Shown: positions 31,492-52,825 of the stretch, piece after piece | Position numbering within the stretch: position 1 is the first letter of the stretch | Layout of the letters: every line of letters starts with the position of its first letter | Assembly (NCBI GenBank): GCA_976226885.1 | Contig: OZ320323.1 | Span: forward strand, 24,242,001 to 24,306,000 | DNA: 64,000 nucleotides | Source of the DNA: Iphione sp. A-MEVVRFRX5 | Lineage: Eukaryota | Direction: 5' to 3' | Notes under the pieces: model-generated | The model's database searches: none | The model's input: the letters and a program-made list of their open reading frames with translations, nothing else | What the model was told of the DNA's origin: nothing | Program-made: the position numbers and the translations under genes

Positions 31492-34086
31492 TTTGAGATC
31501 TAAGTGACACCACTGCTTCTTCTTCAAAAATGATGATATGTGGTGATATGACTACCTCCTCTTCTTCTGTCCTCTTCTCAGGGGACAGTATAGATATGAA
31601 GGTAGGGGCAGGCTCAAGGACTTGTAGGGGAGTAGAGTGAGAGTGTCCTTTTACCTGTCCAAATGATCTCACGGGATCTACCTGTTTCAGGTGTCAAAAT
31701 GATGTCCTCTTCTTTCTGGCTCTTCTAATAAAGTCTTTCTTGATGTATTAAGAACTGAGTCTTGATATTCTTATAAGTATTTTAGAGATAGTTTGCTTTG
31801 GTTAGGTGACAGATAAATATGCTCTTCCTGAGTCCTTCTTCTTTTAACTGAATGATGTTATCTCATAGAATATCTAAATGTTCAGTTCTTGTAGGTGTAT
31901 ATAAAAGCCAGTAAATTGATGCATTTAAACTGTAATATATTTATTGGAGAATAGCACACAAGGGGTGACTACCTCCCTTCTGACAGCAGTAATGTATATA
32001 CAGTGTGGCAGAGTCACCAAAGTCAATGTGATACACCTGTAGTTTAGGTAATATGTAGCCTAGCAGGGGAAATATAGTCTGTCATAAACCAGCACTTCAC
32101 CAAAATGTCCAGTAGTTTCAACCAATATTGCAATGGAAGTGGTAACAGCAGTTCAACCAGTTTGTCCAGCAGTTTCAATATGGCAACGGTCAATAATGGT
32201 GGCAAACAGAGTTTTCAGTAACATGCAAACTAAAGTGTAGTTTCTACCTTCAAAATGCTTGTCCTGAGTGTCAGGGGTCCTAGGCTGGCAAGGTTCCTGG
32301 GCTGGAGACTGGTCCTGGTGGTGTTGCTGGTCTGACTCCCTCTGCCTGACTGATTTGTTTGGGGAAAGGGGGCTGCTTATAAGCACAGCTGGTCTCCAGG
32401 GTCCCTGGGGTTTGTTTGGCTCCATAGCTACAATGGTTAAGGCCCCTCACTCATGCCTGGGAGCTGACAGGGGAAGGAGGGCTGAAGGTGAGTGCTGTAT
32501 ACTACCTTGAATTTCTTATTTTATTTTGCAAAATGTGTATATTATTTGACTGCAAATGTTGTTGAGGGACTGCAGGTAAGTGCTGTAAATGTTTTTAGTC
32601 CACCAAACTGTGTTTTTGAGACTTATTCTGGATGTAGGGCTGAGTATATTATTGTGCTGTATATATGGGTCCCCCTGGGCTATAGGCACTGGAACCTGAC
32701 CTAGGAGGTGTACTCTGGGCAATAGGTTTTAGAACCAAAACTGGTGTTTCATCCATGTTAAAGCCATGTTTACCAGGGTTGCATTAAGGTGAATAATTTG
32801 TCAAACTTTTCTAAAATGTTTTTCTGGTTGAAATGAGTATTGTTTTTGTCAGGCTGTATATGTGGGTTCCCCTAGGCTATAGGCACTGGGACCTGACCTG
32901 GAAGGTGTACCCTGGGCTATAGGTTTTAGAGCCCAAACTGGAATTTTATTCATGTTGAAGTCATGTTTGTTAAGGTTGTATTAAGGTGAATGTTTTGTCA
33001 AACCTTTTTAAAATGCTTTCTTGTTGAAATGAGTGTTGTGTACTGTGTATCTGGGTCAATCCCTGGGGCTACCCTAGGCTGGAAGCTTGCTAAAACCTGA
33101 AGTAGGGTTTCTCTCATATTAGAACCAGGTTTTACTCTTGTTGTAGTAAGGTGAATATTTTGCTTTGACCATCTAAAATATTCTTCATGTTGGTATTTAG
33201 AATAATAATGGTTTTATTTTTGCCTGGCTGTCAAGAAAGGAAACTAGTTGGTTTGGGGTCTAAATACAGAATTTGGTCTACACTTGTATTTCCCTCTTTT
33301 TGATGTATATGTATATATTCTGATCATGGTCATATGTGTAGTATTTAAGTTTTTGTACATTGCTTTCTTGACATATGTTCTTTACTATATTTAATGTAAA
33401 GGGAGGAAGGGTATTGTTTTGGGTCAGGCTTGGTGGACATGTCTGGGCATGCAAAACAGGAAGTCACTTCAGGGGACACAGGAAGTCACTTCAGGGAGGC
33501 AGGGTTTGAGGCTAGTTTGTATTGGTGACCAATCACAGGGGGTCTTGCTTGGGAGGTAGGGCCTGGGGCTTGCCTATTGTTCCTTCCAGCTGGGTCCACT
33601 GAGGTAAGCTCCTTAGCTGGTTGCAAAGGGTACCACTGTGAAAGCAGCTTTAGAAAGCTCCCTTTAGCTAGTTCCATTGAGGCAAACTACTTAACTGGCT
33701 GTTAAAGCTTTTCTCAATAGATGTAGCTCAAGGCCTGAATAGACCTGCATGCAAAGGTCTTTTATTCAAGGCTTTTTGTTTAAAGGGAATTAGGCTTTAC
33801 TTCTTTTATATTGAATACTCCATTTGCCATTGACATTTTACAAGAAATACTGAAACTCCTTCATAAAATACACTTTCATATATATCAACATTCACATTCA
33901 TCTATAACTGTACTTTGAAACTGCATATAAAATATATTCCTATTTATCTTTACACTGTGTTGCCACTATTGTAATTAATGTATATGTTTGAATCATTTCA
34001 TACATATCAATCATAGGTACATACATTATCATATGCAATGAAAACTGAATCAGACATGAATATTTCTGAGGGTCCATAATCTAACA
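31492..34086 (-). repeat. 3' LTR (2595 bp)
   Basis: Direct repeat of 50231-52825. No differences were found in the blocks compared by eye, and the ORF track is duplicated exactly. It contains a ~195-bp imperfect triplication (32657-33190) and tandem CAGGAAGT sites (33457-33490). Confidence 0.97.
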
Positions 34087-34094
34087 CTCTCCTC
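34087..34094 (-). other. Polypurine tract
   Basis: GAGGAGAG immediately precedes the TG of the 3' LTR on the - strand. Confidence 0.7.
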
Positions 34095-34620
34095 AGCAAA
34101 GAAAAAGACTGTGTTGCCACTACACAGAGTAATTATAGAAGTATACAGCGTAAACCAATATACCTGCTGCCAGAAGGTAGTCATATAGGTAACACCAGGT
34201 AATACAGATTACAAAGATATGGTTGTACACGCAATGTCACTAAACAAGACCAGAAATACATAATACAATCCAAAATTACATGTGATATACAATATTTAAC
34301 CCAGAATAAAGAACAAATGAATACAAATACAGTAGACATTCAATGATACAGGGGCCCAAGATTTTAGTACATAAAAAGTAAGACATACACATAAGTATTC
34401 ATCAAGGTGTGTTCCAATCAGGTATTATCTACATCAGGTAGGTCATGGCAAGTAGCCATGATTCAGTCAAGTCCAAGTCATCATACTCAAATCATAATCA
34501 GTACTCGTAGTCCATAGGTAATACATCATCAGGTACAAGTGATTGTTGACTGCATCAGTCAGGTGATTCAAAGGTGATTGTCCTTGTAAGGTGTCAGTAT
34601 CCATTCTCAGGTTACATTAT

Positions 34621-37323
34621 TTAAACATCGGTAAGAGTCTCTGTTGAGTCAGCATACTTAGAGCTGAAGATGGATATGGCTTTGTTCTGTTGACGCTGTG
34701 GTTTGACTGGAGTGATTGAGGCTGCTTCATCGATCACATCGGTAGTATCAAGTTTCGACAGTAGGTCATGATACGCAGGTGGGTAAGACATGACAGACTC
34801 CGGCTTCTTGTTGGTTGGATGGGCAGAGGTAGAAGGAGTAGGAGTTGGACAGATGGAAGAGTGAGACATCAGGGGAGGTAGGGCTGGATAAATACCATTT
34901 TGCAATTTATGGGCAAATCCTTGTTGGCCAAGGAGGATTGAATAATGGGCTAATTCTTTAACAGTTTGTTCAATAAGATGGATCTTGCGACCTCGCCATA
35001 GGGGTAGGACAATGGTGGGTGGAAGGGTAACTCTACGGGTGATCTGTCCATCAGTACGGTAAAGGGGGCTGGAGTACTCAAGATGAAGTGAGTAGGAGAA
35101 ACACTTCTTAACTAAATTAATAGAGGTTATCTTTGGGAGGTGGAATGAAGTAGAGGGTTCAGCGTTAGTCCTGAATTCATGGAGTAACAAAGTGGTGTGG
35201 TTACGTGAGGTGCCCAGCTTGAGTAAAACTTGGAATCCAGATAGAGATATCACTGGACCTGTTGCAGTTGATTTATGAGAACAATATTTAATTACAGCAC
35301 GCATGAATCTAAAGAGTGCCCAGATAATAAACATTACTGCAGCAACGGTGGAGATCGTGTCCAGATGAGTAACTGTAACAGTCAATGCTTGTGGAGTGGC
35401 AGTAGTCACCGATGGTTCTGTTGGTCCTAATATTATAGGTGCTGCATCTGATAACTGATTAAGAGTTATAAGGAACATTAATCTGTTTGTTTTAATGGAG
35501 AGATAAATGACAATGATAGTCAATATAATAGTCAGTGCAGAGTGAATGCTATTCCATATCCAAATAAATGGGGTGGCAATCTCATTGGCTTTGGTAGTTA
35601 GCCAAATTGGCCAATGTTTCATCTCAGCTTCACGTTTGATTGCTAGCTCTCTTGTTTTTGCGATATCCAGGGCCACAGATTTTAAATCTAGTCCTGTGTT
35701 TTCTGGAAGTACTTGTGACAGATTCAGGAGTGGAGACTCTGGTAGAGCTATGTTAAATAGGTAGGAGTTGTTATAAGTGGAAGTCGCGGTGAAGTCTGGG
35801 AGAGATAAGTTGAAGTAAGCTGCTACTGGAAGGTTAATTCCATGGAGTGGTACTTCTGCTTGTGACATACCACAGGAGGTAGTTGCTTCAACTTCATATG
35901 GTCCCACTGTAAGTGTACAGTTGCAGGGGAGCTTGTAGGTGCACAATGAGCAATCCAAGTTAGTTTTAATATTATCACATGTAGTATACACTAGATTAGG
36001 TCCAGCAGAGATTAAGAATGTATCATTTAGTGAGAACACAGATGGAGACATAGTTTTATTAGAGTGAACTGTAAAGGTACACTTTTCAGTTGCTAAATCA
36101 AATCTATCAAAGAAAGTGGTACTGGCACAAGTGCTAAGGGTCTTCTTATTAGTGGGTGGTAACTTCGAACATGAGAGGATATCTTTACCATGACATAGCG
36201 TCATGTCAGCTAAGGTTAGTTCAATGAAGGATTGTTGATCTGGGGCAATGGAGATGTAATCTGGCATACTTCTGTGTTGTGTATATCCATATGATATAGG
36301 CGTAGCAAATGGTGCTCTGAATGTATGAATTCTGTAAAAGTCATGTATGTCAGTGGTCTTGCCAATAGGTACGGATACATGCATGTATAAGTATCTCTCT
36401 GAATACATGAATTGGGTGACTGAATGTTCGTAATAAAAGGCTGGGTCCTGAACTAATATCTTATCATTACCTGTCAGTAAATTCTGTACTTTACGGAGTC
36501 CATACTTAACCTGATCTGGACTAACAAGTATACCAGGTAGTCGGCCAGCATGGAGATCATTCAATGCCAAACGGAAATGTAGGAAGCTATCTTTTATTCT
36601 GTGTAGTGCAGCGATCTTGAGAATCAGGGAATCAAGGTACACTTGTATGTCTAGGCTAAAATCAATGGCTTGTGACTGGTTGGTCACTGCAAATATAAGT
36701 TGTTTATTGAGTTCAGTAGTACGTCTAGAAAGTGCCAATATGGCTGCATCATGTGATCTCATTTGCTTTGATAGGGCCTGTACTGCGATGGAGGATGAGT
36801 TGGCGAGTGCAGATAGCTGTGTCTGCAAGCTAAGTACCGCAGAGGGGTTGACTGATGCTGCAACTGTGTCTATTCTCCGTGCAAGCATTCTGATGTCTTC
36901 CATGGTAGCTGTACCAAATAGATATTTAGATGCTTTACCTACAAAACCAAACCAAGATCTAGGTTTCCTACCTTGAGAATCCTTGGTGGGTTTTGAAAGA
37001 AGTGCAGTAAGATGTAAGTTTTCCTGTCCTACTTCATGAAATAATTTGACACACATGTCATGGGTGTTGTCGAGAAAAGATGTTAGTCGAAGACATGCGG
37101 CAGTATCCCTACAGGGAAGATTTACACTGAGCGGGGAAAGACTATAGGTTGCAGGAAAGGATTTGGGTCTGGGTGAGACAAATAATAGATCAACCTTCTT
37201 GCTGTTTGTCAGAAGTGGGGTAGGCAATTTCTCAAAATATACTCCCAAATTCTGCCTAAGGATAAAGGAGGACTGGGTAGGAGCAAAGAGTAAAAGAAGA
37301 ATAAGAAGAGTGATGCCCCTCAT
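34621..37323 (-). CDS. env: Envelope glycoprotein, class I fusion protein of the errantivirus env/baculovirus F type, 900 aa
   Basis: Signal peptide; furin site RKPR (36969-36958) followed by the fusion peptide SWFGFVGKASKYLFGTATMED; heptad region; Cys-rich ectodomain; TM segment. A strong acceptor (tttctccctttcatttattccag|) lies 6 nt before the ATG. Confidence 0.92.
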   Translation of the reverse strand: MRGITLLILLLLFAPTQSSFILRQNLGVYFEKLPTPLLTNSKKVDLLFVSPRPKSFPATYSLSPLSVNLPCRDTAACLRLTSFLDNTHDMCVKLFHEVGQENLHLTALLSKPTKDSQGRKPRSWFGFVGKASKYLFGTATMEDIRMLARRIDTVAASVNPSAVLSLQTQLSALANSSSIAVQALSKQMRSHDAAILALSRRTTELNKQLIFAVTNQSQAIDFSLDIQVYLDSLILKIAALHRIKDSFLHFRLALNDLHAGRLPGILVSPDQVKYGLRKVQNLLTGNDKILVQDPAFYYEHSVTQFMYSERYLYMHVSVPIGKTTDIHDFYRIHTFRAPFATPISYGYTQHRSMPDYISIAPDQQSFIELTLADMTLCHGKDILSCSKLPPTNKKTLSTCASTTFFDRFDLATEKCTFTVHSNKTMSPSVFSLNDTFLISAGPNLVYTTCDNIKTNLDCSLCTYKLPCNCTLTVGPYEVEATTSCGMSQAEVPLHGINLPVAAYFNLSLPDFTATSTYNNSYLFNIALPESPLLNLSQVLPENTGLDLKSVALDIAKTRELAIKREAEMKHWPIWLTTKANEIATPFIWIWNSIHSALTIILTIIVIYLSIKTNRLMFLITLNQLSDAAPIILGPTEPSVTTATPQALTVTVTHLDTISTVAAVMFIIWALFRFMRAVIKYCSHKSTATGPVISLSGFQVLLKLGTSRNHTTLLLHEFRTNAEPSTSFHLPKITSINLVKKCFSYSLHLEYSSPLYRTDGQITRRVTLPPTIVLPLWRGRKIHLIEQTVKELAHYSILLGQQGFAHKLQNGIYPALPPLMSHSSICPTPTPSTSAHPTNKKPESVMSYPPAYHDLLSKLDTTDVIDEAASITPVKPQRQQNKAISIFSSKYADSTETLTDV

Positions 37324-37638
37324 ATTGATCTGGAATAAATGAAAGGGAGAAATTGAAGAGTGCTTATGGATATATGGCTTCTCCGGTCCTTTTATTAATG
37401 TTATGACTGTAGGTATCTTGGTATTGAGAATTCTATATCTAGCTATAATATATTGCCATCATACATGGAGTATGGTGTCTATAAAGCGACTTGCACTGTA
37501 GAGATCATTTGAATAGTATGCTGATAATTATGTCTTTTTTTGTTGACTAACGTGAATAGACTGCAAGGGATAGTTATGCTTTGCTACTGATTATGGGAGA
37601 ATCATATAAATAACATAAGGTGGACATGAAAATGATAT

Positions 37639-37929
37639 TTATTTAGTGTTGCAAACTATAATATACATAATATCTTCTTCGTCATCGTCAGGAATCTCTA
37701 TTATTTCTATACTGTCTCTATTTGAAGTCATAATGGGTGCATTTTTGTCTGCAGCCTCCTTGTCATCTGACTCAGTAATGATAACAGGATTATCCTGTGT
37801 TCCTTCTCCCTCATGGCGCACCTGGCTGCGGAGAATGGGAGTGATATCAAAGTTGTCAAAGACATCATCATCCTCTTGTTCTCTGTCATCAATGGTCAGG
37901 TCACTGCACTCACTCCAGTCGCTGTCCAT
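37639..37929 (-). CDS. Accessory ORF B, 96-aa acidic protein with several SIM-like motifs
   Basis: Intact ORF with its own splice acceptor (cattctacag| at ~37946) 16 nt upstream of the ATG. Motifs DLTIDD, PVIITESDD and IEIIEIPDDDEED. Confidence 0.65.
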   Translation of the reverse strand: MDSDWSECSDLTIDDREQEDDDVFDNFDITPILRSQVRHEGEGTQDNPVIITESDDKEAADKNAPIMTSNRDSIEIIEIPDDDEEDIMYIIVCNTK

Positions 37930-39039
37930 GATGTACTGGTTTTAGCTGTAGAATGAGTGTAATGGGTGGATGGATAAGTGAATACTGCCAATTGGCAAAA
38001 AGGAAAAAAAACTATCTTTCTGTAAATCCAAATGTTTCATAGGAAAATATGCTTAAAGAGAGTCATAATTCATATAAAGTTGGTGGATAGTAATAAGATC
38101 ATAAGATTGTTGGCAATTATTAAAACTGCTGACAAGGTTGAACTGCTGGACAAGTTGTGGGTGGCTACAGGTGAATGAATTCCTGCTGCCTAGTGAAAGT
38201 GGCAAAGACAACCCTACTGTAGATCCAGTTGACAGATTGATAAGTGTGGGCATAGAACAACCACTTAACGTGGTGAACCTTCAAAATGCAGCTACAAGGT
38301 TGTATTCTATATTAAATGAGAGTTCCTGATCCGCTTTTTCCATCATACAATTGATAGTACTGTAGAGTGAACATGAGAGTGGCTATAGTCAGTTAAATAT
38401 TGCTGATCGGAATAGTGGCAGAATGCTCTTTATGGCATGGTTGCCAGGGTGGATAATACTGATTAAATGGAACCTTACAATGCTGCTATAGGGGCGCATC
38501 TTATATCAAATAAAAGGTCTTGATCTGCTGAACATGTCTGTACCCTTATGTAGTGTTTAGGATGCAAATTGTAGCGTGTAGAGGGATTTGAATATCACTG
38601 ATCGGAAAAGCGGTGGCTGATTTATGTGGGTTAATTGTCACAAACCAGATTTTCTTTAGGGCCAACATATAGCCAAGTATCAAACCTTAATATTGGTCGT
38701 AGAGGGTCATATTTTATATCAAAAGGAAACTCTTGGCCTGCTTATTACATTGCTGTCATTAACACCATGATATCATACAGATTGTCGGCGGTAGGAAGGG
38801 TTAAATATCGCTGATCGGTAAAAGCGGCAGTGTAATTTCCTATGTTCACCTGTGGTAAGTATAAAAAAATGGATAGGAGTACTACATGTGTATAAGGCTC
38901 AGAATGTAGCTATGTGGACGTATTAGATATCAAATTAAAGCTCTATATCTGCCTTTTACGTTGATGTGATCTGTGTGATTGTAAGTTGAGTAGTGTGGCC
39001 GGTACAGCAAGTAGAAGATCGCCGACCGGCAAAGCGGCA

Positions 39040-39250
39040 TCGGGCGTTCACACATTTTAGTTGTCGCTCAGGTAGGGGAGGCACTCAGTAGCATTCACAG
39101 CTTTGGATCGGGGCATATGTTTAGCTATAAAAGTGAGGAGTTTCAGTGGTCTGGCGTTATTCATTGGAGGACGTCATGCTGGAACCTAGGAGCGCCGAAA
39201 CAGAGGAGTCAGAGGAACTTAATTTCAAGTCAAACTTCGAAGGTATAGTT
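39040..39250 (+). promoter_or_regulatory. Antisense promoter module 1 (TATA, Inr-like, GAGGACGT, 5' splice donor)
   Basis: GCGTTCACACAT at ~39044, TATAAAA at 39126, GAGGACGT at 39167 and donor AG|GTATAG at 39243. Confidence 0.6.
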
Positions 39251-39614
39251 TGCAAACATATTTCTCATGTGTATGAATGTTGGAAGATGACCTATACCTC
39301 ACTATTGGCCGTAGAGAGTCATGTTTGATATCAAATGAAAGCTTGTAATGTGACCTTTCCTTTGGTACCATCAGTGTTCCTGTACGTTGGGTATTGTGGA
39401 TGCTACGGCGAGTAAAACATCGCCGATCGGTAAAGCGGCTAAGTGCGGGCTTAGTCATGTGAAATTGGATGGTCTCTCAGTGAATTTTCAAGTTTGGAGT
39501 GTGTCTATATTACATTATAGTACAGGGATAGTAGATTTCGGTTTTGTAAATGAGAAGGAGGTAATTTTGTCAGGTATAGGTTCGGGGGGGGGGGGGTTGC
39601 CGACGTGCTTAGTT

Positions 39615-39830
39615 GGGCGTTCACACATCCTGGCTACCATCGCTTGAGCGGGGAAGCAGGAAACGTTTGGACAGAGACATAATTAACAGCTTTTGCAGCT
39701 TTTTGTAATTTAGGCTATAAAAAGGGGTGATTTCTGAGTTTTAGCACTATTTCAACAGAGGACGTAATGATGGAATTAGGACTCCTACGGATTCTGCTTG
39801 GCCGATTGGCTTAGCTTTTATCAGGTATGT
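39615..39830 (+). promoter_or_regulatory. Antisense promoter module 2
   Basis: GCGTTCACACAT at ~39617, TATAAAA at 39716, GAGGACGT at 39758 and donor CAG|GTATGT at 39825. Confidence 0.6.
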
Positions 39831-40349
39831 GCGCATATATCATTTCTACATATGTGAGCGTTTTAAGGCTTCTATCACGATTATTTCTGATTATAATATA
39901 GTATTTTGCTACTGGAAGCGACACACAGTTTACACATGGTTATTCCATATACATAATATATATATGGAACTAGATGTATTGAAGTTTTAGAACGACGCTA
40001 CATGGGTGTATTTTATATCAAATGAAAGGTCTTTTTGCACTGAACATTGCTGGACTTTTACTTCTTATATAGGATGTGTATTTTGAACGTGTAGAGGGTT
40101 TTGAATGTTGCCGAGCGGAAAAGCGGCGAGATACTGACTTACAAAGAGAGGACTTGGTATACTGGGTCAGGAAATGTACCTATAGGGTTGTATCATATGG
40201 AAATTCCCGATCTGCCCATTCCAATGGTGGTATCAGTGTGACTGTAAATTGAGTATTGTGGACGTTACAGCGAGTGAAACATCGCCGATCGGTAAAATAG
40301 TGAAATACTGCAATATATAGTGGGCCTGCCGCAGTACTTAGACAGGGGT

Positions 40350-43587: not shown

Positions 43588-46095
43588 CTATTTGTTTGCT
43601 TTCTTGCTTACGTTAGGAGATCTCATACGTTGGAGAAATTTCCAAAATCTTTTTGGCTTCTTAATCTCAGGTTCAGAAGTGTCAGACAGTTCATCATTCT
43701 CTTCATTATCTAATTGAGTTTGATCATGTTCTGTTAGAAGTACAGGTCTACGTGTTCTGCTGCGGAGGTTATATGCTGGTGCATCTGTCCTGGGAAGATC
43801 CTTTTGAGATCCGCTGCAAGAGTCCATGATTGGAGCAGTCTTCACAGGTTTGGCTTGGTGATCTTGTCTGAGTAACCATACGTTTTCATCTGATTGATGT
43901 TCTTGCTCTTTAGTTGACCCAATAGATGTATCTTTAGTAATTTCTTGCTCTGAAATATTTTCTTTAGAGAGGATTTGGGGTGAGGGTGTCACAGGACTCT
44001 CACTTACAGTTTCTTTGATAAGTCTGGCCAATGGCCCATCTTCATATTCCTCATGTACATTTTCTTCTGGCTTAGTTTCCTCTTTTGAATTTTCCTCTCT
44101 CAAAGAAATCAGATCATTATTGTCTTTAACAGGTGGATCATCAGGGTGTGAGTCAACAGTCACTGTATCCTCTGGATCTTCAGGACATCCCCCTTGACAG
44201 GCGTCTCCTAGTTCTTCTGCTTCATCCAGGACTGGAGAGGGTCTTTGTGGTGGTATATCCTCAGGCTCTTCTGGGATTGCATTTAGTGAGGAGGGAGGTT
44301 TATCTGTGAGGTGCTGTCTGCGAGATGAGATGGGTTTGTCTATGGAGGGTGAGCTGGGTGTCTCAAAACTGTCGGGGGGTAGATCTTCAGCCCTTATTTT
44401 CTCTAGATTTGAATTCTCATTTATCACTGGGGGTACTGAACCTGTTTTCTTTAATCTACTGATAGTTACAGATCTAGCAAGGTGCCGTTTTGTCTGTAAG
44501 CATTTTAGATACACTGTACACTCAGTTTGGAATCCTGTAATAACATAGGGTCCATGATACACTTTTCCTAGTTTTAGTTTGAGTGAGCTATCTTGTAGCC
44601 TGGGTACATATAGCCAAACAACATCACCAACCTTTAAGTCAGGTTTGTAGGTATGCTCATCATGTCTGTCTTTCATGTCTTGCGCAGCTTTATCAGAAGT
44701 TTCTAGGGCAGCTTTATGCGCTGTATGTTGTTGTTGCAAGTGTTGAGCAAATCGCTCTTCTACAGGCATAAGTTCATCATTAGGGACAGGGATAGAGTTC
44801 ATTTCTGGACGTCGAGGCTCATACCCATGTAGAAGTAGGTAAGGAGTTTGTCCAGTTCTGGTAGCTTTAGTAGTGTTTAGGGCAAAGCATATTGAAGGGA
44901 GGTAACAGTCCCAGTTATTCTGATATTTGCTAATATAATTCCTGAGAACTGTTAGGAGAGACCGATTTGCTCTCTCTACCAACCCTGAAGTTTGGGGGTG
45001 ACCTGCAGTGGCAAATTTCTGTTTAATTCCATTTTCTCTGCAATAACTTAGGAAGCGGTTTGAGATAAAAGCAGAGCCATTGTCAGAGACAATAGTATTG
45101 ACAATACCAAATCTGTAGACAATATGCTCCTTAAATTTTGATATGAGTGTGTCTGCTCTGAGATCTGGCTGTGCCCATGCAACCAGAAATCTACTATAAT
45201 AATCTACAACAGTAATAATATGCCTATTATCATCTTTTGTAGTGGGTAAGCGTTCAATAGCATCCATGTTAATAGTATGCCAAGGTGCAGGAGCAGGGTC
45301 CCTAAGGGTGAGTGGGGGTCGGATAGGTCTTGTCATTCTTTTAGTCTGGTTACATTTGATGCATGTAGCACAATAGTCATGAACATCTTCACTCATCCCA
45401 GGCCAGAATAATGTCTCTCTCATTTTAGTTAACATTTTGACTGGACCTAGGTGACCAGCATGTACTGCATCATGATTTTGTTGGAGAAATTTCTCTCTCA
45501 GATGAACGGGAACAACTAATCGCACATTGGTTTGAGCATTCGGCCCTGTAGTTGAGGACATTTTAAATAATATATTTTCATAAAGGAAATAGTCTTCCTC
45601 CCTTAAAAGAATCTGTCTAGCCATTTTATCATCATCTGGGAGTCTACCAAATTTGATAAAGGCCACAGTTTGTGCACAGAATGTGTCCTGCTTTTGAGCT
45701 TCTAAAAGATCATTTAGAGGGACATGGGATGATTTTAGATGGTTTTCGGCACCTGAGTGAAGGACAAATTGTCTCTCTCTTCTCTTACGGTGGTTAGGGC
45801 CTCTTTTGGTGAGGAGGGGATCTGATGGCCTAGGTTGAGGAGTAGTTGGGGTGTCTCTAACATGGACTACATTGGTAGGAATAGGGGAAGAGTTCAAGTC
45901 TTCTGGTGATTGTTCAGTAGGACCTGTCCATATCTGATCTTTTTCTGGGGGAACATCTAATCTGGATAAAGTATCCGGGACTACATTTAGGTTGCCTGCT
46001 ACATGTTCAATGGTATAATCAAATCTTTGAAGAAATTCCATCCATCTAACAACACGACTATCTTTATGTTCAAGAGTTTTGCTAACTAGAATGTG
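43588..46095 (-). CDS. pol: pol 3' part: RNase H end/connection, integrase (HHCC, DDE, GPY) and a long acidic tail
   Basis: HDAVHAGH...CATCIKC zinc finger; WHTINMD...VVDYYSRF...SDNGSAF...SGLVERANR catalytic core; YHGPY. It is separated from the upstream pol by a 1-nt frameshift at T5 46096-46100. Confidence 0.95.
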   Translation of the reverse strand, partial: HILVSKTLEHKDSRVVRWMEFLQRFDYTIEHVAGNLNVVPDTLSRLDVPPEKDQIWTGPTEQSPEDLNSSPIPTNVVHVRDTPTTPQPRPSDPLLTKRGPNHRKRRERQFVLHSGAENHLKSSHVPLNDLLEAQKQDTFCAQTVAFIKFGRLPDDDKMARQILLREEDYFLYENILFKMSSTTGPNAQTNVRLVVPVHLREKFLQQNHDAVHAGHLGPVKMLTKMRETLFWPGMSEDVHDYCATCIKCNQTKRMTRPIRPPLTLRDPAPAPWHTINMDAIERLPTTKDDNRHIITVVDYYSRFLVAWAQPDLRADTLISKFKEHIVYRFGIVNTIVSDNGSAFISNRFLSYCRENGIKQKFATAGHPQTSGLVERANRSLLTVLRNYISKYQNNWDCYLPSICFALNTTKATRTGQTPYLLLHGYEPRRPEMNSIPVPNDELMPVEERFAQHLQQQHTAHKAALETSDKAAQDMKDRHDEHTYKPDLKVGDVVWLYVPRLQDSSLKLKLGKVYHGPYVITGFQTECTVYLKCLQTKRHLARSVTISRLKKTGSVPPVINENSNLEKIRAEDLPPDSFETPSSPSIDKPISSRRQHLTDKPPSSLNAIPEEPEDIPPQRPSPVLDEAEELGDACQGGCPEDPEDTVTVDSHPDDPPVKDNNDLISLREENSKEETKPEENVHEEYEDGPLARLIKETVSESPVTPSPQILSKENISEQEITKDTSIGSTKEQEHQSDENVWLLRQDHQAKPVKTAPIMDSCSGSQKDLPRTDAPAYNLRSRTRRPVLLTEHDQTQLDNEENDELSDTSEPEIKKPKRFWKFLQRMRSPNVSKKANK

Positions 46096-48859
46096 TTTTT
46101 AGAGGGTTATGGTCAGTTTGAATGAGGAATTTAGCTCCCTCTAGGTAGACACGCCAATGCTTCACTGCATAGAATATGGCTGCCATTTCCTTGTCAGTAG
46201 TAGAATAGTTTAATTGAGCACCTTGAAATGCCTTTGCCCAAAAAGCAACAGGTCTCAAGTTTCCCTGTTTGTCTATTTGTGAGAGACTAGCTCCCATTCC
46301 ATAATTACTTGCATCAGTGGCTAAATAGAATTCTTTGTTAAAGTCTGGGTATAGCAAAAGTTGATCATCTAATAATGCCTTTTTGAGAGTTTGAAATGCT
46401 TCTTCTTGTTCTGGTCCCCAGAAAAATTTCTTGTTACTTTTCTTAGTCAAATCATATAAGGGTTTTGCCTTTAGACCATAGTTAGGAATAAATTTCCTGT
46501 AATATCCAGTCATTCCCAAAAATCTTCTAACTTGCCTAACTGTAGCTGGGGTTTTTAGATCCTTGATTTTGCCAACATTGTCTGGGGAGGGTTTAAGTCC
46601 TTCAGTGGTTAGAATATGTCCTAAAAATTTGACTTCTGATCTACCTATGTCACATTTAGATGGTTTTAACTTTAGGCCTGCTTGGATCAGTCTGTCTAAA
46701 ACTTGTTCCAGATCAGCCATATGTCTCTCAAATGTAGGGGAGAAGACAACTATATCATCCATGTATGCTAAACAAATCTTATATTTCAATCCAGAAAGTA
46801 CCATGTCAACAATACTCTGGAATGAGGCTGGTGAGTTTTTGAGTCCCATAGGCATAGTTTTATACCTGAATTTTCCTGAAGGGGTTAGGAAAGCTGTCTT
46901 GTCTCTATCTTGATCACGAATAGGAATTTGATGGAAACCCATCTCTAAATCCATAACTGAGAGAAATTTAGGTTTGTTATGTCCTATGGCATCTATTGTA
47001 TCATCAACTCTAGGGATAGTAAACATTTGGGTAACAGTTTGGGAGTTTAGATTTCTGTAGTCAACAACTAATCTAAATTTTCCATTAGGTTTAGGAACTA
47101 AGAAGGCAGGACTGGCCCATGGACCATCTCCGGCTTCTTCAAGTATTCCCTTGTCTCTCTGATCATAAACTATTTTATCTAGCTCTTCCCTCATATTCGG
47201 TGACATGCGGAAAGGTTGGGCTTGAGTGGGATATGCATCTGGGACTAATTCAATACGGTGCTCAACTAAATGTGTCCTACCAATATCTCCTTTCAATACA
47301 AATGCATCCCTTTTAGATTGGAGTAAATTCATACAAATTTCTTTCTGTTCTTCAGTGAAGTTTGATTGAGACAGGTCAATAGGGATATCAGAAGGGGTTG
47401 AATGTTGGATAGAGTTAACTTCAGTGTTAGTCTTAAAGGTGTAGGGAATACCTTTAGTAAATGTACCAATTCTTAGTCCTTTCCTAAGTTGTTGGGGTTT
47501 GTCAGAATAGTTTAGAATGGAGACGGGGATATGATTTCCTGAAACTTTCACAAGTGCTTCTCTGTTTGAGACTATTTTTCTTGGGGTGGACTTAAGTGTG
47601 TCCTCAAATATTCCTTCATATGAGTCTAGGCACTGACCATCGGACAATATTTGGGCCCACACAAAGGTTTCAGAGAGGGGTTCTAAGAGTATGTCATCAG
47701 GTAGGGCTGTTGGGTAATGGGCAGGAGGTCTAGGACCAAATGACAGGTTCATGGAGAACTGGTGTAGGAAGTTTCTCCCAAGAATGATATCATAGGCTAG
47801 TCCCTCAATGACATGTAATAAGACAGGATATTTATGGTCATCAATGGGAATATCAAACTGAGCAATGTATGAGGCCTTAGTGGTTGTTCCATTGGCCATA
47901 ACACACTCAGCTTTAGAAGGGAGTATGTTCATGTCAAACCCATTTTCCTGCAATTGATTGAAAACCTTAGAACTAATGCAGCAACCTTCAGCTCCTGTGT
48001 CAATAAGCGCAACAACAGATACCTTTCCCAAATCAAGTTTGGTACAACAGGCATTTGTTAATGAATGGTGAATAGTTTCAGTTTTGCCTTCTGAGATTTG
48101 TTGGGTCCAGGACATATAGACACATTTTTCCTTTTGTGAAGTAGTGTATGAGTTAGCTTTAGAAATAATGCCAAAAATTTCATTAGTTTTTGAAGGGAAG
48201 TTAAAGTCTTGATAAATTTGGTGGTCATGAATTTCATCGGGGAGGATCAAGTGTTCACCATTCAAAGGACAACATGGAATTCTGTTACACCTAGGTTTGA
48301 GTACCTTCCTAGTTATCTCACTACTCAGTGATTTAACCTTGTCATGTACACAGATTTCCATGTATTCATAGTCACACTTGCAGTTACCATGTTTATGGTC
48401 AATAATTGCCATTCTTAAGGCCATAAGAATAGCATATTCAAGGCTGTTGACACAGAGTCCTTCTGCAACTTGACAGTCACACTGAGGTGTAATGTTACCC
48501 TTCTCATCAGTTTTAACAACACATATACAATGATTTGGGCAATGTGAGCAATCAAACCTTAAATGTCTATTGGCAGGGATATTTGCGTCCTGCTTGTCCT
48601 GTACCTTAGTCTTGGACTTTTTGCGTGTAGGGCGGCTGGGGCAAAGAGGATGTGATTTAATTGTATGATATTTCAAACTCTTAACCCAACTAAGTCTTTC
48701 CTCAGGCTGGGGAGGTAGAGGTTTTGTTAGAATTAGAACTGTCAGTTTCTCATCAGGATCAGTTTTAGAAAAATCATTATCCTTGGGCTTGCTTTGGTCC
48801 TTATTCTGAGATCCAGGTAGAGACTCCCAATACTTGGGCTCATTGGAAGTCCTTCCTAG
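46082..48859 (-). CDS. pol: pol 5' part: transframe Cys-rich region, aspartic protease, RT and RNase H
   Basis: The frame is open from the slippery site at 48859. Protease LIDTGA (DTG 48001-47993) and IILGRNFL; RT WASPAFLV..KFRLVVDYR and YMDD (46765-46754); RNase H TDASNYG..YSTTDKE..TDHNPL. Confidence 0.96.
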   Translation of the reverse strand, partial: LGRTSNEPKYWESLPGSQNKDQSKPKDNDFSKTDPDEKLTVLILTKPLPPQPEERLSWVKSLKYHTIKSHPLCPSRPTRKKSKTKVQDKQDANIPANRHLRFDCSHCPNHCICVVKTDEKGNITPQCDCQVAEGLCVNSLEYAILMALRMAIIDHKHGNCKCDYEYMEICVHDKVKSLSSEITRKVLKPRCNRIPCCPLNGEHLILPDEIHDHQIYQDFNFPSKTNEIFGIISKANSYTTSQKEKCVYMSWTQQISEGKTETIHHSLTNACCTKLDLGKVSVVALIDTGAEGCCISSKVFNQLQENGFDMNILPSKAECVMANGTTTKASYIAQFDIPIDDHKYPVLLHVIEGLAYDIILGRNFLHQFSMNLSFGPRPPAHYPTALPDDILLEPLSETFVWAQILSDGQCLDSYEGIFEDTLKSTPRKIVSNREALVKVSGNHIPVSILNYSDKPQQLRKGLRIGTFTKGIPYTFKTNTEVNSIQHSTPSDIPIDLSQSNFTEEQKEICMNLLQSKRDAFVLKGDIGRTHLVEHRIELVPDAYPTQAQPFRMSPNMREELDKIVYDQRDKGILEEAGDGPWASPAFLVPKPNGKFRLVVDYRNLNSQTVTQMFTIPRVDDTIDAIGHNKPKFLSVMDLEMGFHQIPIRDQDRDKTAFLTPSGKFRYKTMPMGLKNSPASFQSIVDMVLSGLKYKICLAYMDDIVVFSPTFERHMADLEQVLDRLIQAGLKLKPSKCDIGRSEVKFLGHILTTEGLKPSPDNVGKIKDLKTPATVRQVRRFLGMTGYYRKFIPNYGLKAKPLYDLTKKSNKKFFWGPEQEEAFQTLKKALLDDQLLLYPDFNKEFYLATDASNYGMGASLSQIDKQGNLRPVAFWAKAFQGAQLNYSTTDKEMAAIFYAVKHWRVYLEGAKFLIQTDHNPLKTHSS

Positions 48860-48865
48860 TTTCCC
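48822..48865 (-). other. -1 programmed ribosomal frameshift signal
   Basis: G GGA AAC heptamer (48865-48859) directly before the gag TAG, a 7-nt spacer, then a 10-bp stem GACUUCCAAU/AUUGGGAGUC. The -1 frame is open into pol. Confidence 0.88.
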
Positions 48866-50187
48866 GAATTTGGTCTAATTGCCTGGGAAAGAGCCTCGAT
48901 ACTTCTTTGCATCTGGCTCATATTCACTCTCATAATGCGCATTTGTTCTTCCAAAGGGTTGGGGTAGGATTGCTGGTTAGAATGATCTGGATTTTGGTAA
49001 TAAGTTGGACCATAATTTTGAGGGGGATAGTTATTCCTAGGCTGTCTGGGGAGAGGAGTAGGTCTAGTAGGTTGTCCCCTGGGAGGTGGAACTGTGGGAT
49101 CTCCCATTGCTCTCCTTTTTGAATAACAGTCTCTCTCATAATGTCCCTTCTTTTGACAGTAATAACACTGAATATCAGGTCTAGGAGGTGGGTTATTAGA
49201 AGTTCTCCTGGGTGGACGTTTATTTGTTTCCCTTTGCTCAGAAGTGGAGGGAGTGGGCCCTGCTTGTTTAACCTGAAAGGCCATGATTTTTCCGGGGAGA
49301 TCTCTAGAAAGTTTCTCTGAGAGGTCCTCTAACATTTTCTCTACATTAACTATACTGGCTGCATTTTTCACTGTTCCTTGCAAACTTTTCCATGCTCTTC
49401 TAGCATCAGTAAGAGAGTCATTGAAAGAAGGAACTGTTCTATGTTGCATTGATGCTCTTACTTCTGGTAGAATATTTTCCATAAAAATCCTACCCACTTT
49501 ATCATCGTCCTCTATCCCAGCTAATGAGCAGGCTTTCAAAAGTCTTTCCCCAAAGACTTGGGGTGGCTCACCTGATTTCTGTTTGGTATTTTTCATTTTC
49601 TCAACTAATTCATAGCTAGATGGGCCCTTCTCCTTTAGGATATAAGATTTGAGATCGTCCCAGTTTGGGTGATAGTTGATATGGATATACATATGTCTAG
49701 GGAAAAAGCTCTTAGATTTAGAATGGGCCTTTTCCTCCCAATCATCCCCATATAGTTCTTCCATGTATCTCTCATATTCATGTATCCAGTCAGCTACAGC
49801 ATAAGGGTCAGAGGGGAAATCACTAGGTCTTTTAGGAGCGCATGTAAGTTTCATAGCAATTTGATCAACCAAATCGCTCCTTGCCTCAGCTATACCAGCA
49901 TTAGCACCAGGTTGGCCTCCCTGTGCCATTACCTCATTCGCACCCCCAGGCATGATCAAGACAAGGTTAGGACTTACTGGTTCTGTAGTTGGTTGTCTTG
50001 GAGCCGGCTGGGTAGATCTAGGAGCACTGGTTGTAGTCTGGCTTTTTGAAGACTTGTTCCCTCTGGGTTCCCTGGGTTTTCTTGAAGGTAGGGGAGAAGT
50101 AGCCCTCTGGGATGACTTGGATGGACCTCTCAGGCTTGACTTGGACTTGTCCTGGGATGTTTTACTCCGGGTGATCCTATCTGCCAT
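48856..50187 (-). CDS. gag: gag, 443 aa, with a CCHC zinc knuckle
   Basis: Retrotransposon capsid-like region (WIHEYERY...W..LK..IL..; QKSGE....FGERL) and CYYCQKKGHYERDC. It starts 25 nt after the PBS. Confidence 0.95.
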   Translation of the reverse strand: MADRITRSKTSQDKSKSSLRGPSKSSQRATSPLPSRKPREPRGNKSSKSQTTTSAPRSTQPAPRQPTTEPVSPNLVLIMPGGANEVMAQGGQPGANAGIAEARSDLVDQIAMKLTCAPKRPSDFPSDPYAVADWIHEYERYMEELYGDDWEEKAHSKSKSFFPRHMYIHINYHPNWDDLKSYILKEKGPSSYELVEKMKNTKQKSGEPPQVFGERLLKACSLAGIEDDDKVGRIFMENILPEVRASMQHRTVPSFNDSLTDARRAWKSLQGTVKNAASIVNVEKMLEDLSEKLSRDLPGKIMAFQVKQAGPTPSTSEQRETNKRPPRRTSNNPPPRPDIQCYYCQKKGHYERDCYSKRRAMGDPTVPPPRGQPTRPTPLPRQPRNNYPPQNYGPTYYQNPDHSNQQSYPNPLEEQMRIMRVNMSQMQRSIEALSQAIRPNSGN

Positions 50188-50211: not shown

Positions 50212-50229
50212 TACCCGGGTTCTCCACCA
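50212..50229 (-). other. Primer-binding site complementary to a tRNA-Ala 3' end
   Basis: TGGTGGAGAACCCGGGTA, 1 nt from the 5' LTR. Its complement ends GUUCUCC-A-CCA, with the U70 and A73 expected of tRNA-Ala. Confidence 0.8.
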
Positions 50230-50230
50230 G

Positions 50231-52825
50231 TTTGAGATCTAAGTGACACCACTGCTTCTTCTTCAAAAATGATGATATGTGGTGATATGACTACCTCCTC
50301 TTCTTCTGTCCTCTTCTCAGGGGACAGTATAGATATGAAGGTAGGGGCAGGCTCAAGGACTTGTAGGGGAGTAGAGTGAGAGTGTCCTTTTACCTGTCCA
50401 AATGATCTCACGGGATCTACCTGTTTCAGGTGTCAAAATGATGTCCTCTTCTTTCTGGCTCTTCTAATAAAGTCTTTCTTGATGTATTAAGAACTGAGTC
50501 TTGATATTCTTATAAGTATTTTAGAGATAGTTTGCTTTGGTTAGGTGACAGATAAATATGCTCTTCCTGAGTCCTTCTTCTTTTAACTGAATGATGTTAT
50601 CTCATAGAATATCTAAATGTTCAGTTCTTGTAGGTGTATATAAAAGCCAGTAAATTGATGCATTTAAACTGTAATATATTTATTGGAGAATAGCACACAA
50701 GGGGTGACTACCTCCCTTCTGACAGCAGTAATGTATATACAGTGTGGCAGAGTCACCAAAGTCAATGTGATACACCTGTAGTTTAGGTAATATGTAGCCT
50801 AGCAGGGGAAATATAGTCTGTCATAAACCAGCACTTCACCAAAATGTCCAGTAGTTTCAACCAATATTGCAATGGAAGTGGTAACAGCAGTTCAACCAGT
50901 TTGTCCAGCAGTTTCAATATGGCAACGGTCAATAATGGTGGCAAACAGAGTTTTCAGTAACATGCAAACTAAAGTGTAGTTTCTACCTTCAAAATGCTTG
51001 TCCTGAGTGTCAGGGGTCCTAGGCTGGCAAGGTTCCTGGGCTGGAGACTGGTCCTGGTGGTGTTGCTGGTCTGACTCCCTCTGCCTGACTGATTTGTTTG
51101 GGGAAAGGGGGCTGCTTATAAGCACAGCTGGTCTCCAGGGTCCCTGGGGTTTGTTTGGCTCCATAGCTACAATGGTTAAGGCCCCTCACTCATGCCTGGG
51201 AGCTGACAGGGGAAGGAGGGCTGAAGGTGAGTGCTGTATACTACCTTGAATTTCTTATTTTATTTTGCAAAATGTGTATATTATTTGACTGCAAATGTTG
51301 TTGAGGGACTGCAGGTAAGTGCTGTAAATGTTTTTAGTCCACCAAACTGTGTTTTTGAGACTTATTCTGGATGTAGGGCTGAGTATATTATTGTGCTGTA
51401 TATATGGGTCCCCCTGGGCTATAGGCACTGGAACCTGACCTAGGAGGTGTACTCTGGGCAATAGGTTTTAGAACCAAAACTGGTGTTTCATCCATGTTAA
51501 AGCCATGTTTACCAGGGTTGCATTAAGGTGAATAATTTGTCAAACTTTTCTAAAATGTTTTTCTGGTTGAAATGAGTATTGTTTTTGTCAGGCTGTATAT
51601 GTGGGTTCCCCTAGGCTATAGGCACTGGGACCTGACCTGGAAGGTGTACCCTGGGCTATAGGTTTTAGAGCCCAAACTGGAATTTTATTCATGTTGAAGT
51701 CATGTTTGTTAAGGTTGTATTAAGGTGAATGTTTTGTCAAACCTTTTTAAAATGCTTTCTTGTTGAAATGAGTGTTGTGTACTGTGTATCTGGGTCAATC
51801 CCTGGGGCTACCCTAGGCTGGAAGCTTGCTAAAACCTGAAGTAGGGTTTCTCTCATATTAGAACCAGGTTTTACTCTTGTTGTAGTAAGGTGAATATTTT
51901 GCTTTGACCATCTAAAATATTCTTCATGTTGGTATTTAGAATAATAATGGTTTTATTTTTGCCTGGCTGTCAAGAAAGGAAACTAGTTGGTTTGGGGTCT
52001 AAATACAGAATTTGGTCTACACTTGTATTTCCCTCTTTTTGATGTATATGTATATATTCTGATCATGGTCATATGTGTAGTATTTAAGTTTTTGTACATT
52101 GCTTTCTTGACATATGTTCTTTACTATATTTAATGTAAAGGGAGGAAGGGTATTGTTTTGGGTCAGGCTTGGTGGACATGTCTGGGCATGCAAAACAGGA
52201 AGTCACTTCAGGGGACACAGGAAGTCACTTCAGGGAGGCAGGGTTTGAGGCTAGTTTGTATTGGTGACCAATCACAGGGGGTCTTGCTTGGGAGGTAGGG
52301 CCTGGGGCTTGCCTATTGTTCCTTCCAGCTGGGTCCACTGAGGTAAGCTCCTTAGCTGGTTGCAAAGGGTACCACTGTGAAAGCAGCTTTAGAAAGCTCC
52401 CTTTAGCTAGTTCCATTGAGGCAAACTACTTAACTGGCTGTTAAAGCTTTTCTCAATAGATGTAGCTCAAGGCCTGAATAGACCTGCATGCAAAGGTCTT
52501 TTATTCAAGGCTTTTTGTTTAAAGGGAATTAGGCTTTACTTCTTTTATATTGAATACTCCATTTGCCATTGACATTTTACAAGAAATACTGAAACTCCTT
52601 CATAAAATACACTTTCATATATATCAACATTCACATTCATCTATAACTGTACTTTGAAACTGCATATAAAATATATTCCTATTTATCTTTACACTGTGTT
52701 GCCACTATTGTAATTAATGTATATGTTTGAATCATTTCATACATATCAATCATAGGTACATACATTATCATATGCAATGAAAACTGAATCAGACATGAAT
52801 ATTTCTGAGGGTCCATAATCTAACA
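50231..52825 (-). repeat. 5' LTR (2595 bp)
   Basis: Direct repeat of 31492-34086. It begins TGTTAG on the - strand and is followed by the PBS. Confidence 0.97.

Follow-up and report, generated by a model that had tools for sequence, protein, structure and literature searches.

A giant env-carrying Ty3/gypsy provirus with acceptor-led accessory genes and a hypervariable array in Iphione sp.

Structure and boundaries of the element

The window, a stretch of 64,000 nucleotides from contig OZ320323.1, carries a provirus on its minus strand with the following ends and control signals.

31492-52825, minus strand: whole element, 21,334 bp
50231..52825, minus strand: 5' LTR, 2,595 bp, which starts with TG and terminates in CAAA
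31492..34086, minus strand: 3' LTR, 2,595 bp
31488..31491 and 52826-52829, no strand: the two copies of a 4-bp target-site duplication, TAAA
50212..50229, minus strand: primer-binding site (PBS), 18 nucleotides, complementary to host tRNA-Ala(AGC)
34087..34094, minus strand: short polypurine tract (PPT), 8 purines
51087..51120, minus strand: TATAAG box and TCAGTC initiator with 30-nucleotide spacing; predicted transcription start ~51090
50679..50684, minus strand: AATAAA, candidate poly(A) signal at the predicted end of R

Two LTRs, a target-site duplication, a PBS and a PPT are marks of Ty3/gypsy elements (Metaviridae), and all are present here; a matching target duplication is absent in 3 of 7 family copies. 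The order of parts proposed in a first-pass annotation, LTR-PBS-gag-pol-ORF A-array-ORF B-env-PPT-LTR, holds on the minus strand, except that the array does not have the hairpin nature ascribed to it. LTRs of equal length, without differences in the blocks compared, had also been reported, and exact alignment now extends this to 100% identity over all 2,595 bp. Because the LTRs are identical, the insertion is likely to be recent. The 5' LTR includes a 197-bp tandem pair (51395-51778), and the TATAAG/TCAGTC string is unchanged in all six copies that have an intact 5' end. No Rfam family matches the element, and a search of viral and metagenome contigs found no relatives.

The gag, pol and env genes

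48856..50187, minus strand: gag, 443 amino acids, with a CCHC knuckle that scores under the Pfam cut-off
48859..48865, minus strand: slippery heptamer GGGAAAC followed by a -22.7 kcal/mol hairpin; predicted -1 gag-pol frameshift
46082..48874, minus strand: pol, 5' frame, with a Cys-rich N-terminal region, protease, RT and RNase H
43588..46098, minus strand: pol, 3' frame, with the RNase H end, integrase and a long low-complexity tail
34621-37323 (34621..37332 with its acceptor), minus strand: env, 900 amino acids, F-type fusion protein

The pol domains recognized by Pfam (RT_RNaseH_2, RVT_1, Integrase_H2C2 and rve) follow the gypsy-type order of protease, RT, RNase H and integrase. A frame break, overlooked in the first reading, splits pol of the studied copy in the RNase H region, near 46.1 kb. 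Because its pol frame is broken, this copy is not autonomous as assembled and is a defective errantivirus member. Errantiviruses are expected to keep gag, pol and env unbroken; the studied copy does not, whereas pol is open at the RNase H junction in 6 of the 7 copies examined.

A separate F-type env lies downstream of pol, as the definition of errantiviruses demands. Its product carries a signal peptide, an RKPR furin-like site and hydrophobic segments, and scores 26.1 bits against Pfam Baculo_F (cut-off 24.1). The top matches of its low-confidence structure model (pLDDT 51) are the F proteins of RSV and NDV, with an E value of 1e-4, and the ectodomain has no match in a word-indexed protein search or among PDB sequences.

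Accessory ORFs A and B

41664-42209 (41664..42212 with its CAG acceptor), minus strand: ORF A, 181 amino acids
37639-37929 (37639..37948 with its acceptor), minus strand: ORF B, 96 amino acids, net charge -23, with two SUMO-interaction-like motifs

The synonymous divergence of the ORFs between copies is 6-16%, and pN/pS values of 0.26 for ORF A and 0.28 for ORF B across seven copies indicate that both are under purifying selection. No homology was found between the accessory ORFs and known accessory proteins of complex retroviruses. ORF A gave no match in a word-indexed protein search, and a comparison with 1.84 billion representative proteins returned a single weak match that is driven by repeats. 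There are no Pfam families above cut-off, no PDB sequence matches and no match in fold searches (Foldseek E values above 0.4; best Z score 4.7), and the Atlas yields nothing beyond helical-repeat leads of low recognition. ORF A is the founding member of an all-helical, hitherto unrecognised protein family, although the lack of matches is not in itself proof of a new fold.

SUMO-interaction motifs consist of a hydrophobic core beside an acidic tract and bind SUMO. Such a motif is present in 9 of 10 close homologues of ORF B, and the two motifs are the conserved part of a distant homologue from a partner family. However, the motif count in ORF B does not exceed that of shuffled sequences (P=0.42). 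We speculate that ORF B might serve as a SUMO-binding decoy and ORF A as a regulator.

Sibling copies and sister families

According to the first-pass annotation, other copies should be examined for the 37.3-43.6 kb interior, whose absence from them would mark it as a nested secondary insertion or as misassembled. All six siblings contain ORF A, ORF B and env, which argues against both. In addition, six further element families in the same genome, 16 to ~25 kb in length, hold two to four ORF A paralogues between pol and env. This interval spans 6.3 kb in the studied element and 4-14 kb in the sister families. The families that bear ORF A form one RT clade with support of 99/95, in a tree composed mostly of unnamed database sequences without a reference clade panel. 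Two siblings also contain nested insertions.

Those insertions lend some plausibility to the idea that the interior was acquired secondarily or misassembled. However, the interior genes recur in the six siblings and across six further families, the tested segment of the array has no full-length match apart from itself, and matches to the spacer are restricted to copies of the family and its partner. We therefore regard this explanation as almost certainly wrong.

Splice signals and the expression of accessory genes

50388..50423, minus strand: two donor-like sites in the predicted U5, with GT at 50420 and 50393
50981..50989, minus strand: donor-like AAG|GTAGAA in the predicted R (50986), also found in partner-family LTRs
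42593..42671, minus strand: conserved non-coding block ending in TATAAG (42642), common to the partner family; candidate internal promoter or cis element

It had been proposed that ORF A, ORF B and env each begin 0-16 nucleotides after an acceptor of their own (42209, ~37945 and 37329), and this is borne out. A YAG precedes the ATG by 0 nucleotides for ORF A, 16 for ORF B (with a second CAG at 6) and 6 for env, and each gene has a YAG within 16 nucleotides of its ATG in seven of seven copies. The env acceptor is strong, and that of ORF A in the studied copy has a modest pyrimidine tract (8 of 15 nucleotides). Donor candidates postulated in the 5' LTR were likewise located, at 50420 (five of six copies) and at 50393 (six of six). 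The third donor-like site, at 50986, was missed in the first reading. A donor overlapping the end of the PBS was rejected because the base in question differs among siblings. The A-run at 42369-42401 is not a captured mRNA tail, as the run is short in several copies.

Comparison among families extends this pattern. A YAG lies 0-3 nucleotides before the start of ORF A paralogues in 8 of 10 lineages (21 of 23 proteins), against a background of 412 of 3,101 ATGs (13%; P about 1e-4). When a pyrimidine tract is also demanded, 21 of 32 ORF A profile hits qualify, compared with 398 of 3,774 in the background. For env, an acceptor occurs 1-9 nucleotides upstream of the ATG in all six elements whose env start could be located. 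This acceptor enrichment supports the existence of spliced accessory mRNAs. Moreover, 27, 72 and 7 ATGs intervene between the preceding stop codon and the respective downstream genes, which excludes scanning. Thus, the accessory genes are likely to be made as separate, alternatively spliced mRNAs, as judged from these signals. Some observations run counter to this model: the acceptor is missing from two ORF A lineages (locus L050), LTR donors are absent from the searched leader in four of five sister families (by a narrow search pattern), and five or six sibling copies have a further in-frame ATG, 39 codons ahead of the ORF A acceptor.

Alternatively, transcription of ORF A, and possibly of ORF B and env, might start at internal promoters that each add a short first exon. 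The conserved block ending in TATAAG lies 430 nucleotides upstream of ORF A and is accompanied by a donor-like site at ~42498, the core of the block is also found upstream of the first ORF A in a sister family, and an AATAAA overlaps the ORF B stop codon. Internal env promoters are also documented for Oikopleura Tor in the accessible part of PMC4402516. However, tandem paralogues in some families are just ~130-200 nucleotides apart, which leaves scant room for a promoter and an intron per gene, and the TATA element reads TGTAAG in the partner family. We therefore hold this arrangement to be less probable than LTR splicing, though with a real chance of being correct. Acceptors that abut start codons in closely packed tandem genes could also serve spliced-leader trans-splicing of a polycistronic RNA, which we consider highly improbable given that the LTR contains cis donors.

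The hypervariable array

38274..41411, minus strand: hypervariable array composed of 11 units of ~196 bp; every unit has one motif of the CCGATCGG type and one of the TTTGATAT type, a fixed distance apart
40351..40670, plus strand: antisense cassette with an upstream motif, a TATA-like box (40452), GACGTCAT, an AG|GTATGT donor (~40608) and a predicted short intron
39617..39835, plus strand: antisense cassette with TATA at 39716 and a donor at ~39825
39044..39250, plus strand: antisense cassette with TATA at 39126 and a weaker donor

The array had been described as a series of hairpins, a description that does not hold. Across 46 units, RNAalifold predicts 0 consensus pairs, and the mean folding z score of 48 units is +0.27 in the sense and +0.26 in the antisense direction. 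With no stable or conserved hairpins and no Rfam match, a structured RNA or miRNA cluster can be dismissed. The array is better described as ~196-bp units with embedded, predicted antisense promoter-exon-intron cassettes, whose motifs and donor are almost invariant across 15 cassettes. No conserved antisense ORF was found in the array, nor was a nucleosome-type periodicity of 10.5 bp (P=0.09). A literature search with the array motif strings returned no relevant paper, and a link to KolobokP repeats was abandoned because the accessible part of the KolobokP literature has no such motif.

Copies that are 94-99% identical outside the array are ~62% identical within it. At a threshold of at least 88%, none of the inner array can be aligned in 17 of 21 copy pairs, and the maximum is 3.3%. 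Unit similarity (0.60-0.63) is about equal within arrays, between arrays, and between the family and its partner, which shows that the two draw on one shared unit pool. The non-autonomous partner family lacks gag, env and mostly RT, and the array persists in those of its elements whose LTRs are 99.8-100% identical. Tracts have been exchanged between subfamilies, as seen in exact matches of 95 and 73 nucleotides and in a 405-nucleotide tract at 93.6%. Linkage drops to about zero immediately upstream of motif B, a small dip that low variance in the conserved columns could explain. One sister family has a similar local dip (arrays 74-87%, flanks 86-98%). In two other sister pairs, the compared parts are 93-97% and 96% identical and contain no block of similar hypervariability. 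Among 213 units, 22 have a partner of at least 85% identity, 12 of them from one segmental duplication. This duplication also accounts for the common array of L148 and L149, which is therefore not inherited through transposition.

The array might be functionless repeat DNA, perhaps the subterminal sequence of a DNA transposon, diversified by relaxed constraint and recombination in a large, old pool. Motif B is found singly at many loci, several of them alike, and we take these to resemble non-autonomous DNA-transposon sequence. Variable tandem arrays with no assigned function are also known from plant Retand, where they lie 3' of pol (PMC11963269). However, the copies whose arrays differ are 93-98% identical in their non-coding spacer and LTRs, the two motifs keep a fixed spacing of 95 nucleotides in 48 of 65 units, the cassettes hardly vary in their motifs and donor, and the deleted partner family retains the array, so we consider this explanation unlikely. 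The scarcity of units with a close partner would also fit local hypermutation, by a deaminase or a process like that of diversity-generating retroelements, or the storage of captured CRISPR-like spacers. Change rates of 0.18 for A, 0.23 for C, 0.22 for G and 0.16 for T reveal no base bias, which rules out adenine-targeted mutagenesis. Furthermore, the variable parts align end to end as homologues and thus are not foreign spacers, as a CRISPR-like array would have. Either process seems improbable.

Proposed explanation

The explanation that we favour, and believe to be probably correct, is that the locus holds a recent env-carrying Ty3/gypsy provirus from a clade of 16-25 kb elements, wherein accessory genes are spliced and the array is a cis DNA module reshuffled by RT template switching. 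One LTR transcript would give Gag and, via a -1 frameshift, Gag-Pol, and splicing of an LTR donor to alternative acceptors would give the mRNAs for ORF A, ORF B and env. If its frame break is genuine, the studied copy would depend on Pol supplied in trans. Less firmly, proteins might bind the ~196-bp units, which would thereby control the embedded antisense promoters as well as local chromatin. Direct repeats that are nearly identical are deleted by RT, and we propose that array units stay diverged for this reason. Crossovers at conserved motifs between co-packaged family and partner RNAs would shuffle the units, and sequence-guided silencing would select for rare arrays. The array may in this way help the element to evade host silencing.

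A broader reading, which we put forward as doubtful, joins these parts into an errantivirus clade with an independently evolved complex-retrovirus programme and a counter-defence of its own. Its components would be a tandemly expanded family of accessory regulators, made by splicing and having an unrecognised fold; a peptide that acts as a SUMO decoy against piRNA-guided chromatin silencing; and a cassette array, reshuffled under diversifying selection, that gives each insertion a new regulatory identity and is shared and parasitised by satellites.

Relation to known elements and significance

Daidara of springtails is a giant gypsy element, and the studied element resembles it, Burro and Ogre in exceeding 20 kb and in having long LTRs and extra coding capacity. 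Burro (planarians) and Ogre (plants) are already known as giant gypsy elements, as are additional ORFs between pol and env, according to the accessible part of PMC6431247. Thus, size alone is not novel. Unlike Burro, in which the same part of that source places extra domains and env in one polyprotein, the extra genes here are separate, small, paralogous and acceptor-led.

Errantiviruses are env-carrying Ty3/gypsy elements with an F-type or gB-type env (Chary and Hayashi, PMC13524379). The studied element shares their LTR-gag-pol-env order, PR-RT-RH-IN pol, F-type env, furin-like site, tRNA primer site, multicopy state and recency, but differs in having accessory genes and an array in a 6.3-kb interval between pol and env. 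The survey in PMC13524379 applied a prefilter (pol-env gap of at most 1,000 nucleotides, total of at most 10 kb) and an LTR step (at most 14 kb), so such elements would have been excluded. Neither 'accessory' nor 'splic' occurs in its main text.

Retand/Tat elements of plants have short family-specific repeat arrays and antisense ORFs and no env-like ORF (PMC11963269). A long region 3' of pol, repeat arrays and antisense transcription (predicted here) are features in common with these and with the antisense RNA of Drosophila micropia, as covered in the accessible part of PMC7264820. Unlike in Retand, however, the units are ~62% alike even within one array and differ between sibling copies. Oikopleura Tor, whose env mRNA is spliced or internally promoted (PMC4402516), and bdelloid LTR elements with a captured ORF3 (PMC5408684) are also invertebrate elements with env or extra ORFs. 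The accessible parts of both sources report neither a tandem accessory gene family nor a hypervariable array.

With complex retroviruses (HIV, HTLV, foamy viruses and foamy-like fish ERVs), the element shares small acceptor-led accessory ORFs and candidate internal and antisense promoters. Members of the complex Retroviridae have a retroviral RT and an env of the class I SU/TM lineage, and membership is ruled out by the Ty3/gypsy-type pol domains and F-type env found here. The element thus appears to work like a complex retrovirus in layout and is not one. Of the organisation originally claimed, the layout is retained: it extends to a whole clade within the genome, and comparison among families supports the acceptors. 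The hairpin array is lost.

Multiple small spliced accessory genes are usually held to be a mark of vertebrate complex retroviruses. If our interpretation is true, a Ty3/gypsy clade with one to four paralogous acceptor-led genes would represent an independent origin of this design. The size filters of the most extensive errantivirus survey published would not admit the clade, and kindred elements elsewhere may have been overlooked. ORF A offers a new protein family that is open to testing. Finally, the sharply bounded array makes it possible to ask directly whether diversifying selection on a retroelement's cis module is driven by sequence-guided silencing.

Anatomy of the provirus

31492-52825, minus strand: window element, 21,334 bp

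In the broad sense of the term, the element is an errantivirus of the Ty3/gypsy group; as assembled, it is defective. Its host is an animal (assembly 1.18 Gb). The first-pass annotation had described LTRs of equal length without differences in the blocks compared, and exact comparison agrees, since both are 2,595 bp and identical; a 4-bp duplication flanks the element. The primer-binding site corresponds to the 3' terminus of host tRNA-Ala(AGC), a gene for which is present at 6 of 11 host loci bearing a primer-matching 3' end. A TATA box and initiator, spaced by 30 nt, predict a transcription start near 51090. The gag-pol overlap holds a slippery heptamer and a hairpin, and pol carries protease, RT, RNase H and integrase domains in gypsy order (Pfam). 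An RNase H frame change near 46.1 kb, which could be a genuine lesion or an error of base calling, splits pol; the same spot is open in 6 of 7 copies examined. Env has a Baculo_F match (Pfam), and the best matches of its predicted structure, a model of low confidence, are RSV and NDV F. A Cys-rich region ahead of the protease (47700-48600; P0006) has no Pfam match, and is conserved in sister families, the partner family and a database protein with 74% RT identity.

Elsewhere in the window, exons recognized by eye are taken to belong to genes for a major-facilitator transporter (2394-7428, minus strand), a DXO/RAI1-like protein (13098-17310, plus), a G-patch ankyrin protein (26756-27880, minus) and an ankyrin-repeat protein (58446-60309, plus). 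A frame of GIY-YIG type at 11330-12174 (minus) presumably marks a decayed Penelope-like fragment. A degenerate TG-rich 12/71-bp minisatellite lies just outside the 3' LTR (30500-31450), and the window also contains a 56-nt inverted repeat (29547-29725) and short dispersed repeats (12705-12790 and 21737-22385).

Sibling copies

ORF A, ORF B and env occur in unchanged order in all six siblings read at full length, and pN/pS across seven copies is 0.26 (ORF A) and 0.28 (ORF B). The interior is therefore native and coding, with purifying selection on both extra ORFs. The absence of the 37.3-43.6 kb interior from other copies, raised earlier as a possible objection, is thus contradicted. Sibling LTR pairs are 99.7-100% identical, and target duplications match in four of seven family copies. 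Pairwise identity among copies is 94-99% for the LTR, gag, RT, integrase, ORF A and env, and 91-96% for ORF B. An LTR search of the genome gave at least 42 matches (best 40 of 338 candidates scored), ten of them with primer site and leader.

Two siblings (loci L013-L014 and L019-L020) carry nested insertions. One is a LINE-like, endonuclease-bearing element of ~8 kb at a gag-pol junction; the other, within an array, is 5.5 kb long, has terminal inverted repeats and contains a 793-aa frame.

The ORF A family

ORF A matches at least 150 host-genome loci (all 150 candidates scored, of 4,234), and the distant matches retrieved come from related elements, where they occupy the stretch between pol and env. 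These elements measure 16.2, 22.0, 23.1, 24.1 and 24.6 kb, with two more lacking defined ends, and each carries two to four tandem ORF A paralogues plus other unrecognized ORFs. Pol-to-env gaps are 4.4-13.6 kb, those of sister families being overestimates because the count starts where the pol match stops. In one sister element (L049) the ORF A cluster runs in the opposite orientation to env.

In the RT tree, ORF A-bearing families form a single clade (99/95) adjoining four database proteins. The initial proposal of an errantivirus lineage resembling complex retroviruses survives, and widens to a clade. This clade is large, as judged from an env search of the genome with at least 131 matches (131 of 2,685 candidates scored), many within long open frames.

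Across the 23 ORF A proteins, which are 24-82% identical, D, C, G, H, Y, P, W and D residues are invariant, and the structure is confidently predicted as eight helices (pLDDT 85). Pfam, protein-sequence, PDB and structure searches gave no known family, homologue or fold match.

Unrecognized ORFs of 200-450 aa lie just before env in sister families (L045:8324-9409, L053:496-1842, L049:1210-2220 and L076); BLASTP ties some of them weakly to the ORF A family, and others form their own group. At L067-L068, a sister element sits inside a long satellite with ~230-bp units.

Candidate splice sites and ORF B

Of 23 ORF A proteins, 21 have a YAG that ends 0-3 nt ahead of the homologous ATG. Counted by lineage (less than 55% identity between lineages), the site is present in 8 of 10, compared with 412 of 3,101 background ATGs, or 20.5% once several candidate ATGs are allowed for (P ~1e-4). 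The two lineages without an acceptor belong to the same family. An acceptor with a pyrimidine tract precedes 21 of 32 ORF A profile hits (five lack a start codon within range, and ORF A of the window element fails narrowly) versus 398 of 3,774 in the background. Acceptors are also found in all six elements whose env start was located, and at the distant ORF B homologue of the partner family.

Scanning is excluded because there are many upstream ATGs, and the accessory mRNAs are, on these sequence features, probably spliced. The donor-side evidence is weaker. The LTR donors previously placed at ~50394 and ~50420 correspond to donor-like sites at 50393 and 50420, with another at 50986; they are conserved within the family, and a donor-pattern search did not find them in four of five sister families. 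At 430 nt upstream of ORF A there is a conserved block whose end is TATA-like, and Tor is known to have internal env promoters (PMC4402516).

ORF B is 31% acidic and has two SIM-like motifs, which are the conserved part of its distant homologue. In Drosophila piRNA silencing, SetDB1/Wde is recruited through SUMO-SIM contacts (10.1101/533091). ORF B might act as a SUMO decoy, an idea we treat only as a lead because the SIM-like motif is not enriched over shuffles.

The hypervariable array

The array comprises 11 units in the window copy and 6-10 profile hits in siblings, with a median spacing of 196 bp (150 intervals) and a fixed distance between two unit motifs in 48 of 65 units. The array reported by the first-pass annotation is more unusual than described. 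Its designation as a hairpin array fails, since the units have neither a consensus RNA structure nor a folding excess.

For 17 of 21 sibling pairs, none of the inner array (0% of its length) is alignable at ≥88%, and the maximum for any pair is 3.3%, one array's figure being diluted by the 5.5-kb insertion. Identity climbs away from the array, from ~85% just before ORF B to 92% in ORF B and 97% in env. Among 213 units from ~30 loci, best matches have a median of 70%; only 22 units have a partner at ≥85%, and a single segmental duplication accounts for 12 of them.

Each array embeds one to three antisense cassettes consisting of an upstream motif, TATA, GACGTCAT and an AG|GT donor. The putative donor lies 147-175 nt past the TATA in most, and the candidate acceptor usually 52-72 nt later. 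No conserved antisense ORF follows the 15 cassettes aligned, whose selection required the presence of these same motifs.

Motif B of the array units occurs alone in dispersed repeats (L088, L090, L092, L093, L095 and L096) that look like non-autonomous DNA transposons, and as a full inverted repeat in sister-family units (L083-L087). Single complete units lie outside arrays at L089 and L094 (L104), the L094 unit adjoining a C2H2 zinc-finger ORF.

The partner family

L097, L099-L102, L113-L118, L120, L148-L150, L154, L077, L081: partner-family loci

The partner family is non-autonomous and recently mobile. Its elements are 12-15 kb long, with LTRs 72-80% like the window's and LTR pairs 99.8-100% identical. 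They lack gag and env, and most also lack RT; the protease-bearing pol fragment encodes only the Cys-rich region, protease and integrase zinc finger, with part of RT in some copies. One subfamily retains an ORF B homologue.

Arrays of 10-20 units are retained in partner elements. Identity is 90-97% in the parts of these elements that can be aligned; the arrays, one 405-nt tract aside, do not show such identity. Unit identity is 0.625 within the window element's family, 0.605 within the partner family and 0.608 across them, and the nearest neighbours of 33 of 83 units cross this boundary; thus, the units form one pool. In one sister family, the same position holds a related 201-bp array; seven copies are 74-87% identical there and 86-98% in their flanks. 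The parts compared in two other sister pairs contain no comparable hypervariable block.

Comparison with known systems

Daidara of springtails is a giant gypsy element. Gypsy giants have been described before, and so have occasional extra ORFs near env (PMC6431247, PMC5408684). The region 3' of pol is likewise known to hold repeat arrays and to give antisense transcription in other elements (PMC11963269, PMC7264820). The gap and size limits of an errantivirus survey (PMC13524379) exclude the layout described here. Listings of the open literature, together with the papers cited here and PMC9587614, showed no report of acceptor-led accessory genes in tandem, nor of an array of this kind, for any gypsy element of invertebrates. 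In its layout, the element works like a complex retrovirus but is not one.

Origin of array diversity

As a source of array diversity, neutral drift alone does not fit, because identity in other non-coding parts of the same copies is 93-98%. Nor does targeted mutation, given that the array changes show no base bias. We lean slightly towards a cis-acting array whose units would be shuffled by template switching. Reverse transcriptase deletes direct repeats that are near-identical, so diverged units would be favoured. Retention of the array by deleted partner elements points to a benefit in cis. As for the selective force, our preferred guess is escape from small-RNA-guided silencing, which may select for array diversity.
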